Assembly: GCA_030599585.1 (NCBI GenBank)
Contig: JAUVNS010000015.1
Location: forward strand, 32,001 to 96,000
DNA length: 64,000 nucleotides
Direction of reading: 5' to 3'
From: Promethearchaeota archaeon
Lineage (GTDB): Archaea; Asgardarchaeota; Lokiarchaeia; Sigyniarchaeales; SOKP01
Position 1 is the stretch's first letter. Each line of letters opens with the position of its first letter. Below the pieces are notes generated by a model. It was not told where the DNA came from. It made no database searches and saw nothing but the letters and a program-made list of their open reading frames with translations. Below, piece by piece: positions 5,560-63,451 of the stretch. Made by a program: the position numbers and the translations under genes.

Positions 5560-6363
5560 TCAAATCCCAATTTCTTTAATGGCTTCATTTACTTCGTAAT
5601 TTTTATGCACAACTAAATATAATGCTTTTACAACTTTTGTAGGATCTTCTGCTTGAAACACATTTCTTCCGAACGCCACACCTGCTCCACCAACTTCTAT
5701 GGATTGTTTAGTTACTTCTAGAATTTCTCTCAAACTTGCCTTTACACCTCCAGCTATAATAACCGGCGCCATACATCCAGCAACAACCTCTTTAAAAGAA
5801 TCAGGATCTCCAGTCCAATTTGTTTTTACTAAGTCTGCTCCGAGTTCCGCGGCAACTCTTGCGGCGATTTTAACAACCTGAACATCGTACTCGTTGTCAA
5901 TATTTTCTCCACGAGGATACATCATTGCCAAAAGTGGTATCCCAAATTCTCGACACTCGCGCGAAACATTTCCCAAGATTTCTAACATTTCTGGATCAGT
6001 TTTTGTTCCAATGTTAATGTGTAAAGATACGCCATCAGCACCCAATTTTACAGCTTCCAATACATTATTTACTAAGACCTTGTAATTTGATTCTGGGCTT
6101 AATGATGTGGATCCGGATAAGTGTAGAATCAATCCGATATCCGGACCGTATCCCCTATGCCCATAAAGTGGAATCCCAACATGTCCTAAAACCGCATTAG
6201 CACCACCTAAGGCAATTTTGTTAACAATTTCTCCTAGATTTCTTTCTATTCCTTTAATAGGTCCTAATGTTAATCCATGATCCATAGGAACTATAATTGT
6301 TCTTTTTGTTTCTCTATTAAATATTCTTTCTAACCTAATACTTTTGCCTATGTAACCAGAAAT
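5560..6363 (-). CDS. DhnA-type class I aldolase / 2-amino-3,7-dideoxy-D-threo-hept-6-ulosonate synthase
   Basis: PMDHG, AMMYPRG, ELGADLVKT, GRNVFQ; frame extends 26 codons upstream of the called ATG through conserved GKSIRLERIF to an ATT codon behind GGTGA. Confidence 0.9.
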   Translation of the reverse strand: MSGYIGKSIRLERIFNRETKRTIIVPMDHGLTLGPIKGIERNLGEIVNKIALGGANAVLGHVGIPLYGHRGYGPDIGLILHLSGSTSLSPESNYKVLVNNVLEAVKLGADGVSLHINIGTKTDPEMLEILGNVSRECREFGIPLLAMMYPRGENIDNEYDVQVVKIAARVAAELGADLVKTNWTGDPDSFKEVVAGCMAPVIIAGGVKASLREILEVTKQSIEVGGAGVAFGRNVFQAEDPTKVVKALYLVVHKNYEVNEAIKEIGI

Positions 6364-6476
6364 AGTTTATTCACCAATAAATCAATGGTTATATAATTAA
6401 ATTTAACTATAGAATATATATTATAATAGTTAGCATTTTTTTAATTCTTTTAAAACAAACTCGTTGTTAAAATTGA

Positions 6477-6701
6477 ATGTTAGAATCCAAGGACGATCAT
6501 TCGATTAAAGAAAATAATGGAAATATTAATTGCTATAACTGTGGTAGTAAAATTGCAAATGTCAATCTTAAATATTGCATAAATTGTAATACTATATTAA
6601 ATCCAAACGATTTAAAGTGGAGAAACAGTTTTATTTATTTTATCAGCTTGCTATGCTTAATTCCAATCCTAATCGCGCTTTTTTCTAGCTGGTTATCTTA
6701 G
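6477..6701 (+). CDS. Small Zn-ribbon membrane protein
   Basis: CYNCG..CINC plus a C-terminal hydrophobic helix. Confidence 0.6.
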   Translation: MLESKDDHSIKENNGNINCYNCGSKIANVNLKYCINCNTILNPNDLKWRNSFIYFISLLCLIPILIALFSSWLS

Positions 6702-6791
6702 CCTTAATAGATTGTGTTCAAACATAATTTCATAGCTAAAGAATGTAAATCAACAGTTTAATAAATTGGGTAGGAAACGATATAAATATGC

Positions 6792-7298
6792 TTATTCAGG
6801 AGAAAAAACTACATCGGAAATTCGTTGCCTACGTATGTCAAAATCATGATCAAGATGAAGAGTAATACAATGTTGATCCTTCATCTGAGAATTACTATGA
6901 ACATAGCTTATTGGAACGACAGGTAAATCAGATTTATTGATATAATTTTTAGGGATGGGTACTGGAATTATTTCTTTACATCGTTCACAATTTACTAAAA
7001 CAACTTTAATTTTATCAGATTCTAACCTTTTCAATTTTTGTAAAAGATCAGCAGATAACCCTGGAGAATTAACCGTTAGTTTATTCTTCTTTTTTGGCGA
7101 TTCTGGAACTAAGGGGATTCCTAATTCGACATCCTCAACAGTCGAGAAATCTAAATTTGATTTATCCTTTTTTTTTTTAATTTTAATAGAAGATTTCTTC
7201 TCGTCCTTATTTTTTTTGCTGGAAAATTTAGGATTTGACTTGGGAGTTGTGTTTTTGATTACTGTAGGTTTTTTATTGTCTTTATTTGGATTTTCCAA
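6792..7298 (-). CDS. Hypothetical protein, Lys-rich N-terminus and C-terminal putative Zn site
   Basis: CERC ... H ... H; TTG start behind AGTGA. Confidence 0.65.
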   Translation of the reverse strand: MENPNKDNKKPTVIKNTTPKSNPKFSSKKNKDEKKSSIKIKKKKDKSNLDFSTVEDVELGIPLVPESPKKKNKLTVNSPGLSADLLQKLKRLESDKIKVVLVNCERCKEIIPVPIPKNYINKSDLPVVPISYVHSNSQMKDQHCITLHLDHDFDIRRQRISDVVFSPE

Positions 7299-60680: not shown

Positions 60681-60748
60681 ATTAAATTTTCTACCATCGT
60701 TTTTCTACAATAAAGTTAAATTTTTTTTTGGTTTATCTTATTATAGTT

Positions 60749-60994
60749 ATGAGGAGAAAGAACCAAGGGACCCTTTTGATAGTTGTTGGTGTAATGTTGA
60801 TAATTTTTTTTCCTGTTTCTTCGGTGTCTAATGGTATAGGTTCGATTGGGCTTTTTTTTCCGTACGATCCGTTATCTTATTGGATGATTTGGTTGATACA
60901 GTATGGCGTGTTATCTATTATTATGGGTATAATTGGCGTGTATTTTATTGTTACTGGGTATCGGTATAGAAAATGGTATCGGGAAGTTGAGTAA
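60749..60994 (+). CDS. Small two-TM membrane protein
   Basis: Two hydrophobic helices; lies between repeat cores. Confidence 0.6.
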   Translation: MRRKNQGTLLIVVGVMLIIFFPVSSVSNGIGSIGLFFPYDPLSYWMIWLIQYGVLSIIMGIIGVYFIVTGYRYRKWYREVE

Positions 60995-61078
60995 CGATTT
61001 TATCGAGATCGAAGTTGAGAAGTTGTGTTCCGATTATTATCTTTTTAATACCTATTCTCTATCTTAATGAGTCAATTC

Positions 61079-63451
61079 TTATTTAGATCTTCCTTTCTTT
61101 TTTTTATCAGGAATCTCACTCTGGAGAGATTTTTTGAATTTCATTATGTTTTCGTAGAGTTCATTACAGAAATTTTCGAATTGCATTGGCTCAAATTGGG
61201 TACCGAATTCTCTGTGGAGCTCTAATTCCTTTAAATCGTCCCAAGCAAAAGCTACTCCCAAAATCGGTACGATTTGTAATTTGTTCGTTTTTGCAAGGTC
61301 TAATTCAGTCTTGCAATCTTGTGAGCTTATGGAGTCTTCAGTGGAAATGAACAATAATAGATGACAACGAGGCACAATTTTTTGCATCCATTCGTCAATA
61401 TTTCCTGAAAGATCCACTTCACAATAGAATACACGCCCTATTTCTTTTTGAGACTCCAGATATTTGGCAATATCATCAATACGGTATTTTTTAAAATCGT
61501 CAACTGAATGACTTATAAACACGCGCATTCCCTTTCTGAAATATCTCCCTAATTCGAAAAACCTCATCGACATTACTATTCCAACAACGCTAGGGATAAT
61601 TATTACGAGCATTAATAAAATAACAAAGATATCAACTAGGAAGGTATATCTTAAAGTTTCGTAAATAAAATAGTACTGTAGGACGAGTCCTAATATGCTC
61701 CATACCATAAGATATCGATTTTTCATTCTTATACTAAAAAAAAGAAAGTACATTGAGTAGAGAGAGACCATAAACGGTGCGATCACACTATGTGAGATTA
61801 CTATTGCTAGTGCCGTTATCACTTCATAAAGATCACTAAACATGCTACCAATTAACAAGGCAGAATCTTGTATTATAGGCCATAAAATTACTGATAAGAC
61901 ACTATAGATTAAGTACATAATAGCACCAGAGATAAGGTAATTACCATAATTAGCTCGATTTTTTACACCAACCACTAAAAAAGAAATTGCAATAATGACT
62001 CGTAATCCTAGCTGGCTATATACGTAAATCAAAAATAGAGAAAATGCAAGCACTAAATCTATGAAAGGTAGCGCTAGTAGAGTCAAGGCAAAAAAGGGTA
62101 ACTCTAAAATATAAATAATACATGATATTAGACTAACTTTTTTTAATAATTGAACTTTTTTAAAACCTTTTACCTGTTTTCCCAACGCATAAGCTCCTAA
62201 AAAAACAAAAATAATATCAGAAAACCTGGTGATCTCAGCTATTACATCCATTAAATATAAGTCAGGATTTAGTGTAAATGATTCAATATCTTCTATTATA
62301 AAGTGTTGAACTACTTTAAATATGAAAAGACCAGACATTAGTACAACAAAAATAAAAGTTCCATATCGACGTAAGAAAGGAAGAGTTTCTTTTGCTCCTT
62401 CATCATCTAAAATAGCTCCATCTCTGGAAGATCTTCGCCGTAAAAGAAGAATTCCGAATACGATTATAATGCTGACACTCCCTGTTATCATCCCAATTAC
62501 AAGGAAGTATGGGTTTAAATCGCTACAATCTCCTTGGATTTGAAAATCTTGAATATCTATTCCATTGCTACTAAAATTGTTATTTGAAACAGTATTGCAT
62601 TTAGAATTTTCAGCTAAATAAATACCAATATCATTGTTATTTATTATATTGAATGTGATTCTATTCTTTTCACTATTTTCTACATGAAATCCCTCTACGT
62701 GAATTCCCTCTAGATTGTTGTATATAGTGTTTTCCGAAATGTAATTATTATTTCCACTTATTTCTATTCCATAATTATTATGATTACTTATGTTATTCTC
62801 TGTAATTTCATTATAGTCACCTGACAATAAAATACCTTCTTCACCGAAATCAATAGTATTTTTTGTCACGGTGTTGTCTTCTGAAACAAAGAGACCTATA
62901 TTATAATCAGAGTTATCAAAAAGCACATTATCGGAGACATTATTCTTATTGCTACCCCAAAGGTATATTCCATATTTGTTAGATTCAATAATATTCTTAT
63001 AGATCAATGATCTATCTGCGTAATCTAAGGTTATTCCATAATATTCATTGCTTGAAACAGAGTTATTTTTGATTATTCCATTGATGATATTACTTAAACT
63101 AATTCCGGTTCCCGAATTATAGACGGTACAGTTTTCAATCTTAAAATAAACATTAGAATTTTCAATCCAAATACCTCTTCCAGCACCACCGCCATTGATT
63201 ACAAGATCTTCTATGATATATGGATCAGACTTTGTTCCCTCCCCCGTACATATTCCCGCAGTTTTCGCATCAGCCCAATTATTATCAATATGAATTCTCC
63301 CCGAAATTTTTGCGCTAAATAAATCTTCATTATCTAAATTAGCATCATTGCTATTTCCTGTGTAAAAACTATGATAATTATTGATTATTAAAACGAAGGC
63401 TACTCCTATAATTAATAAAATTATTACTTTTAAATTAGAATTTAATTTGAT
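61079..63451 (-). CDS. Receptor-like protein: signal/TM, NosD-like beta-helix, about 9 TM helices, C-terminal TIR domain (790 aa)
   Basis: Frame open 148 codons beyond the called start (GEGTKSDPYIIE, GIxL..N repeats) to ATC behind GGTGA; TIR motifs RVFISHS, LLFIS..SISSQDCKTEL..IVPI. Confidence 0.85.
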   Translation of the reverse strand: MKLNSNLKVIILLIIGVAFVLIINNYHSFYTGNSNDANLDNEDLFSAKISGRIHIDNNWADAKTAGICTGEGTKSDPYIIEDLVINGGGAGRGIWIENSNVYFKIENCTVYNSGTGISLSNIINGIIKNNSVSSNEYYGITLDYADRSLIYKNIIESNKYGIYLWGSNKNNVSDNVLFDNSDYNIGLFVSEDNTVTKNTIDFGEEGILLSGDYNEITENNISNHNNYGIEISGNNNYISENTIYNNLEGIHVEGFHVENSEKNRITFNIINNNDIGIYLAENSKCNTVSNNNFSSNGIDIQDFQIQGDCSDLNPYFLVIGMITGSVSIIIVFGILLLRRRSSRDGAILDDEGAKETLPFLRRYGTFIFVVLMSGLFIFKVVQHFIIEDIESFTLNPDLYLMDVIAEITRFSDIIFVFLGAYALGKQVKGFKKVQLLKKVSLISCIIYILELPFFALTLLALPFIDLVLAFSLFLIYVYSQLGLRVIIAISFLVVGVKNRANYGNYLISGAIMYLIYSVLSVILWPIIQDSALLIGSMFSDLYEVITALAIVISHSVIAPFMVSLYSMYFLFFSIRMKNRYLMVWSILGLVLQYYFIYETLRYTFLVDIFVILLMLVIIIPSVVGIVMSMRFFELGRYFRKGMRVFISHSVDDFKKYRIDDIAKYLESQKEIGRVFYCEVDLSGNIDEWMQKIVPRCHLLLFISTEDSISSQDCKTELDLAKTNKLQIVPILGVAFAWDDLKELELHREFGTQFEPMQFENFCNELYENIMKFKKSLQSEIPDKKKKGRSK

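Follow-up and report, generated by a model that had tools for sequence, protein, structure and literature searches.

Three codons, ATT, ATA and ATC, which open minus-strand genes for an aldolase, a zinc-dependent phospholipase C (PLC)-like protein and a TIR/beta-helix protein in a stretch of Promethearchaeota DNA, are very probably genuine near-cognate start codons placed behind Shine-Dalgarno (SD) motifs, as are dozens of others in the same genome. The stretch, hereafter called the window, comprises 64,000 nucleotides (nt; positions 32001-96000 of contig C3) of an archaeal metagenome-assembled genome (MAG) of 4.85 Mb, 52 contigs and 32.6% GC. An earlier note on this DNA had proposed that the lineage routinely initiates at AUH codons (AUU, AUA or AUC; ATH in the DNA). 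The proposal is supported by homology of the start positions, by a genome-wide SD-spacing signal and by Pfam domain boundaries, but the codon set named in it was too narrow: ACG clearly appears to be used as a start and CTG probably so, while AAG and AGG are not used. On comparative sequence evidence, the near-cognate habit appears to be a property of the lineage, extending over the whole genus and, in weaker form, to a sister family within the same order of Promethearchaeia (Lokiarchaeia).

Three probable near-cognate starts in the window

At all three sites an SD motif (GGTGA or GAGGTGA) lies 6-7 nt upstream of the ATH codon, exactly as the earlier note had described, and none of them falls into the leaderless class, which has no SD. 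Its further observations, that an in-frame stop precedes each start and that no ATG, GTG or TTG occurs before an apparently essential region, hold as well, the stop often being merely the TGA of the SD itself. A 6-nt spacer puts the TGA of GGTGA in frame with the start, so that the SD doubles as upstream stop, and this explains why a stop recurs shortly upstream.

The aldolase gene (5560..6363, minus strand; 267 amino acids (aa) from the ATT) encodes a DeoC/LacD-family protein of the FBP aldolase/ADH synthase type, in agreement with the label given earlier (Pfam DeoC, 8.6e-56). Its SD, GGTGA (6371..6375, minus strand), is separated by the 7-nt spacer ataaact from the ATT at 6363-6361, and an in-frame TAA (6369-6367) stands between the two. 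No canonical codon occurs until the ATG of V-P-M-D-H-G, 26 codons past the ATT, and the short form beginning there lacks the GKSIRLERIF block, which is conserved across archaea.

The comparison of aldolase orthologs drew on 49 species-level genomes of Promethearchaeota, which numerous groups had assembled. The codon preceding S-G-Y-I-G-K is ATT in 20 of them, ATG in 17, TTG in 10 and ATA in two, with no other codon represented, whereas no conservation is seen 5' of this position and a stop often occurs one to three codons before it. This set of codons, taken with the unconserved upstream sequence, rules out a miscalled ATG and identifies the position as the initiation codon. The SD and the TAA are retained in at least 10 species. 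Among the 22 orthologs with ATH, 18 hold no in-frame canonical codon at all between the upstream stop and the ATH, and the remaining four have a GTG or TTG within or adjoining the SD. Furthermore, an SD 4-mer precedes every ATH start (22/22) and every TTG start (10/10), as against 7 of the 17 ATG starts.

The earlier claim that standard gene callers truncate such proteins stands only in part. Prodigal-type calls do give shortened products (a 241-aa aldolase and a 469-aa PLC-like protein), but NCBI records of relatives carry the 267-aa aldolase and others a 259- or 268-aa form, so annotation is inconsistent rather than uniformly wrong. Public aldolase calls (cluster P0001-P0015) come in five lengths (241, 246, 259, 267 and 268 aa), the 241-aa form being that of the JGI, ENA and Logan calls and of this genome's own public record; the NCBI N-termini in relatives read M-R-L-E-R (259 aa), M-S-G-Y (MSGYIGK; 267 aa) and M-G-K-S (268 aa).

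The PLC-like gene (51672..53195, minus strand) would encode, from the ATA at 53195-53193, a secreted or membrane-anchored protein of 507 aa. Its SD, GAGGTGA (53202..53208, minus strand), is invariant in five aligned sequences and lies 6 nt upstream (spacer aaagag), the TGA inside it (53204-53202) being the in-frame stop. The first canonical ATG is found 38 codons downstream, past a KKK-plus-hydrophobic N-terminal segment, and the resulting 469-aa form is again the one in this genome's public record. The label of the gene finds a counterpart in the Pfam family Zn_dep_PLPC, albeit below threshold (23 vs a cut-off of 26.8 bits). No orthologs were found among 30 sampled relatives, and near-relatives were reached through an exact-sequence cluster look-up and the metagenomic contigs encoding the clustered proteins. 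In these near-relatives (90% identity) the start region reads GAGGTGA-AAA-ATG-ATA-AAT; in the present gene GAG replaces that ATG, leaving the ATA at the optimal distance of 6 nt from the SD and the 509-codon frame still open. As a separate observation, the gene directly upstream (53241-60149, minus strand) encodes a surface protein of 2302 aa, the homologs of which in related contigs show matches to PKD and TSP3-type repeats, and the pair that it forms with the PLC-like gene is kept in four related metagenomic contigs (L338-L341).

The third gene (61079..63451, minus strand) would encode a protein of 790 aa from the ATC at 63451-63449, composed of a signal-anchor, a right-handed beta-helix (NosD-like), a multi-pass membrane region and a TIR_2 domain. 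The SD, GGTGA (63459..63463, minus strand), lies 7 nt upstream (spacer aactaga) and the in-frame stop 12 codons upstream of the ATC, while the first canonical codon, a TTG, occurs 148 codons downstream, within the beta-helix. Pfam agrees with the earlier label in reporting both NosD/Beta_helix and TIR_2, with beta-helix matches that start ahead of the TTG, at residues 55-93. The protein is a member of a large paralogous family, and the starts of the paralogs in relatives (ATG AAA TCA AAT ... KIIILIALGI) align with ATC AAA TTA AAT ... KVIILLIIGV here.

Genome-wide association with Shine-Dalgarno motifs

A genome-wide count of SD-spaced ATH codons, suggested as a check in the earlier note, revealed a clear enrichment. 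SD spacing was calibrated on long open reading frames (ORFs) at their first ATG, where the aligned spacer of SD 5-mers is concentrated at 4-9 nt; the test then covered, in ORFs of at least 150 codons, every in-frame codon downstream of the preceding stop that lies more than five codons ahead of the first canonical codon. Control and permuted codons carry an SD at this spacing in 100 of 7469 cases (1.3%), which equals the background outside the spacing interval. The corresponding counts are 77 of 2263 for ATH (odds ratio (OR) 2.6, p=1.5e-9), 12 of 106 for ACG (OR 9.4, p=4e-8) and 4 of 76 for CTG (OR 4.1, p=0.02), while AAG and AGG (6/531) show no enrichment. The spacing of ATT and ATA peaks at a spacer of 6, as with ATG but more sharply (43% vs 22% of the hits within the interval, p=7e-4). 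Furthermore, in 25 long ORFs a GGTGA supplies the TGA directly before the frame and none of the first six codons is canonical, and 17 of these ORFs carry a near-cognate exactly at spacer 6 (ATT in eight, ATA in five, ATC in two, ACG and CTG in one each), compared with near-cognate rates of 8-28% at neighbouring positions and 11% after TGA stops that are not part of an SD.

Domain boundaries point in the same direction. In a Pfam scan of 20 candidates with an SD and a near-cognate codon, the domain begins at profile position 1-4 in 16, at 2-40 residues past the proposed start, and most of these do not reach their first canonical codon until well within the domain. That codon is residue 81 in a Ras-family GTPase and 62 in a second one, 17 in a RagA-like GTPase with an ATA start, 44 in the ribosomal protein uS4, 80 in an HGD-D dehydratase, 68 in a class I/II aminotransferase, 99 in an SMC_N protein with an ACG start, 108 in an ABC-2 permease and 55 in an RNase_T exonuclease; a RagA-like GTPase with a CTG start (residue 8) and six others (GPN-loop GTPase, Pyr_redox_2, GFO_IDH_MocA, 3HCDH_N, POR and AFOR_N) complete the 16. 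POR, the CTG-initiated RagA-like GTPase and 3HCDH_N have the shortest extensions, and in these three the first canonical codon coincides with the domain start or falls within about 10 residues of it.

Two of these genes could also be followed across genomes. The uS4 codon before G-D-P-R-R is ATC in nine members of the genus, each time behind AAGGTGA, and ATA in one, while the same codon is ATG in other genus members and in sister families. The SMC gene retains ACG-GCT-x-TCT-TCT in at least eight genomes, and one genome (G011) has ATG-GCA behind the same SD; this conserved ACG, replaced by ATG in a relative, adds ACG to the AUH set.

The excess of near-cognates over background corresponds to 53 starts with 5-mer SDs, about 40 of them AUH, or 66 with 4-mer SDs, among 3524 ORFs. 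Near-cognates thus open at least 1.5-2% of all genes and represent 10-15% of the SD-led starts, the count covering the SD-led cases. Five-mer SDs account for ~80% of the near-cognate excess vs ~53% of canonical starts. The true figure could be several-fold higher, as the distances from upstream stop to first canonical codon have a long tail (64 observed vs ~18 expected at 40 codons or more; 30 vs 1.4 at 60 or more), but this tail is contaminated by junk ORFs, antisense ORFs and probable split genes and therefore yields only a loose upper-range estimate of 5-12%. A codon-usage log-odds model for locating coding starts independently of the SD was also tried and set aside, since its ~0.11 nats per codon are too weak for extensions of 10-40 codons.

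The same script applied to a relative of 54% GC (G027, family f4) gave no enrichment; with its ORF set swamped by spurious ORFs, this genome is of use only as a control, indicating that the statistic is not inherently biased. In another genome, G026, ATH enrichment is present (OR 2.2, p=0.04), convincing examples being a TFE-like gene, in which a canonical codon first occurs 91 codons in, and an FtsX-like permease.

Two side observations were made among the ORFs of this genome. A pair of paralogs without Pfam match (C1:50528-51028, plus strand, and C45:22134-22604, minus strand) have near-identical N-termini (I/L-KLWIIYK-GIGFSK), one placed behind GGTGA-N6-ATA and the other behind GGTGA-N6-CTG. 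Furthermore, ORFs on C24 (minus strand, oriented start 156861) and C39 (plus strand, 17509) open in mid-protein, namely in a heterodisulfide-reductase-like FAD domain and in a small GTPase without its P-loop, respectively; these could reflect read-through of a selenocysteine TGA, frameshifts or split genes rather than near-cognate starts.

Initiation machinery and competing explanations

The 16S rRNA ends in GGATCACCTCCT and thus has the canonical anti-SD, which makes GGTGA, GAGGTGA and GGAGG true Shine-Dalgarno complements; most genes of the genome have no SD. The 16S gene ends near C3:16340 and is not linked to the 23S rRNA gene, which lies ~49 kb away in the window (33805-37172, plus strand). 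The latter is archaeal and measures 3368 nt vs a 2987-position model, the extra length being probably due to expansion segments or insertions.

A single initiator tRNA(Met) gene was recovered from the genome, and it lies in the window (23185-23309, minus strand). Its anticodon is the canonical CAU and its identity elements are standard (A1:U72 and a GGG:CCC anticodon stem); the CCA is encoded, and the anticodon loop is interrupted by an intron of ~48 nt. The gene escaped Aragorn as well as the Rfam tRNA model (gathering threshold) and was detected by pattern searches. These two tools were dropped as a tRNA census because they overlook many intron-bearing tRNAs. Fuzzy searches for a second initiator or an altered anticodon (with initiator halves, and with GGG-loop-CCC arms enclosing NAU, CGU or CAG) returned nothing tRNA-like, within an inventory that introns leave incomplete (27-36 tRNAs detected genome-wide). 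Elsewhere in the window a 119-nt tRNA match (4982-5100, plus strand; Rfam 42.5 bits) must hold an intron, while the Aragorn count for the window is zero.

The gene for the initiation factor aIF1 (SUI1; C3:26012-26362) shares its contig with the initiator tRNA, lying ~5.6 kb upstream of the window, and itself has no ATG, GTG or TTG before its Zn-knuckle (TGA AAA AAG AGT ATT AAA GAC GAC GAT ATT TGT (... ICATC)). Its ATT is kept in all 13 genus genomes having the gene, behind the conserved AAAGGTTGTGA, and the homologous codon (at the M-P-K-D position) is ATA in two genomes of another genus and TTG or ATG in others. Inspection of the aIF1 fidelity residues, also suggested in the earlier note, brought no obvious lesion to light: the R/K-aromatic-G-K motif of loop 1 is retained in comparison with the M. 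jannaschii and Pyrococcus factors.

These elements can be combined into a putative mechanism. GGTGA or GAGGTGA would pair with the 16S 3' end and anchor the 30S subunit, thereby placing the codon 6-7 nt downstream into the P site, where the ordinary initiator Met-tRNA (CAU) would be accepted on AUU, AUA, AUC and ACG, and probably on CUG, with two of three bases paired. A strong and exactly spaced SD would offset this weak codon-anticodon pairing, as suggested by the SD 4-mer pattern in the aldolase starts and by the 5-mer SD share of the near-cognate excess. Met-tRNAi would be the decoder and tolerance would be set by the stringency of the initiation factors, and the reliance of aIF1 on its own AUU may create a negative feedback like that of bacterial infC, keeping stringency permanently low. 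This feedback is proposed from the AUU start of aIF1, the rejection of AUU by Sulfolobus aIF1 and the autocontrol of bacterial IF3. In its broadest form, the proposal is that start-codon stringency is constitutively relaxed across this order of Lokiarchaeia and held there by an AUU-only aIF1, with several per cent of the proteome forming an aIF1-level-sensitive regulon; we regard this extension as possible but rather doubtful.

Among the alternatives, the widening could lie in the tRNA, through a modified C34 (as the f5C34 of mitochondrial tRNA-Met), a second initiator or an elongator tRNA-Ile. The predominance of AUH in the excess would fit third-position wobble, and the incomplete tRNA inventory leaves room for such a species; nevertheless, the single initiator-like gene found has a standard CAU loop, and the use of ACG and probably CTG, which involve second- and first-position mismatches, makes C34 modification alone insufficient, so this explanation is unlikely. 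It is very unlikely that initiation takes place at the first downstream ATG or TTG, with the upstream stretch as an untranslated leader and the short forms as the real proteins. Public records, including those of this genome, do list the 241-aa and 469-aa forms, and SD-less internal starts are mechanistically possible where most genes have no SD; however, the downstream canonical codons have no SD either, the short forms lose GKSIRLERIF, the signal anchor and the start of the beta-helix (and, in other candidates, P-loops and Rossmann motifs), and the upstream stretches are conserved as protein among orthologs and paralogs.

Relaxation of the start requirement by termination-reinitiation after an upstream ORF, whereby near-cognates would work only inside operons, is highly improbable. 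Coupling might contribute at the PLC-like gene, which starts ~45 nt past the stop of the 2302-aa gene, but the aldolase start is ~430 nt from the nearest same-strand upstream ORF, no same-strand ORF of at least 80 aa is listed upstream of the TIR gene in the window, and the signal follows the presence and spacing of the SD, not upstream stops without one. Sequencing or assembly errors that turned ATG into ATH, or pseudogenes, are scarcely credible: the source is a MAG with an estimated contamination of 8.9%, and the ancestral ATG of the PLC-like gene has indeed been mutated, yet identical ATT, ATC and ACG codons are found in 8-20 genomes that different studies assembled independently, the frames are intact over 268-802 codons, and the essential single-copy genes for uS4, aIF1 and SMC are among those affected.

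Several points weigh against genuine near-cognate initiation or against parts of its proposed mechanism. A portion of the 83 ORFs with an SD and a near-cognate codon must be due to chance (expected background ~35-40%), and the loss of the ATG in the PLC-like gene could mark a decaying gene, even though its frame is intact. The incomplete tRNA inventory leaves room for a second, unusual initiator. As to the link with aIF1, the loop-1 residues look conserved, and G026, in which aIF1 starts at TTG, is still enriched in ATH. Finally, the start assignments rest wholly on sequence inference.

Implications and comparison with known systems

Eukaryote-like proteins are sought in Asgard (Loki) genomes, most of which were annotated by callers restricted to ATG, GTG and TTG. 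With a few per cent of genes starting at ATH or ACG, the public protein sets would lack signal peptides, P-loops and entire N-terminal domains. Conserved near-cognate starts on essential genes and on aIF1, in the archaeal lineage closest to eukaryotes, would bear on the evolution of eIF1-type proofreading and autoregulation. Should the broader proposal of a stringency set by aIF1 be true, the aIF1-sensitive regulon would consist of the SD-N6-near-cognate genes, i.e., those for ribosomal proteins, SMC, small GTPases and secreted proteins; the AUU-only aIF1 would parallel, by convergence, infC in bacteria and the autoregulation of eIF1 in eukaryotes; and the published Asgard proteomes, on which inferences on eukaryogenesis are based, would be systematically truncated at their N-termini. 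Since cultured relatives exist and G026-type genomes share the signal, the claim is directly testable.

The accepted view is that archaea initiate at AUG, GUG and UUG, AUU being rejected by aIF1. Full-text literature searches yielded no account of near-cognate starts being used systematically in Asgard or other archaea; nevertheless, individual features have parallels elsewhere. In bacteria, E. coli pcnB starts at AUU. The gene for IF3, infC, likewise has an AUU start under translational autocontrol, as described in PMC4705826. Both resemble the present case in placing AUH behind an SD to be read by the normal initiator tRNA, and the product of infC is, like aIF1 here, a proofreader with an AUU start. 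However, they are isolated genes, a handful per genome, whereas here dozens are involved, including uS4 and SMC; moreover, aIF1 is an unrelated factor of the archaeal/eukaryotic eIF1 type, and a shared autoregulation is only presumed. NCBI translation table 11 formally allows ATT, ATC and ATA as initiators, and some NCBI records of relatives use the ATT of the aldolase, but the table is a permissive list rather than a statement of usage in a lineage, and to our knowledge it does not cover ACG.

In eukaryotes, near-cognate initiation (at CUG, ACG, AUU and others) is policed by eIF1, which is autoregulated through its own poor start context. The likeness extends to the shared components (eIF1/aIF1, aIF2 and Met-tRNAi), to a similar range of tolerated codons with AAG and AGG excluded, and to the weak start of the fidelity factor itself. 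Eukaryotes, however, rely on scanning and Kozak context, while placement here would be anchored by the SD, and their near-cognates yield minor alternative isoforms, whereas those considered here appear to be the main or only starts of essential proteins; this background on eIF1 and eukaryotic near-cognates is drawn in part from PMC4705826. Within the archaea, ribosome profiling of Haloferax volcanii placed ~30% of the putative alternative initiation sites at near-cognates, which were excluded by the authors as possible false positives (PMC7261190), and the aIF1 of S. solfataricus rejects AUU in vitro (via PMC4705826). Together they hint that archaeal ribosomes can sit on near-cognates and that aIF1 is the gatekeeper, but conserved near-cognate usage in annotated genes is not described in the Haloferax work, and the strict rejection in Sulfolobus points the opposite way.

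Mitochondria initiate at AUA, AUU and AUC by means of a modified C34 in a single tRNA-Met and without an SD. They share with the present lineage the regular use of AUH as a start, but here an SD is required and ACG is used too. Rare non-canonical starts are known in prokaryotes; here, the comparative evidence suggests, they have become a habit shared across the lineage and extending to essential genes and even to the fidelity factor.

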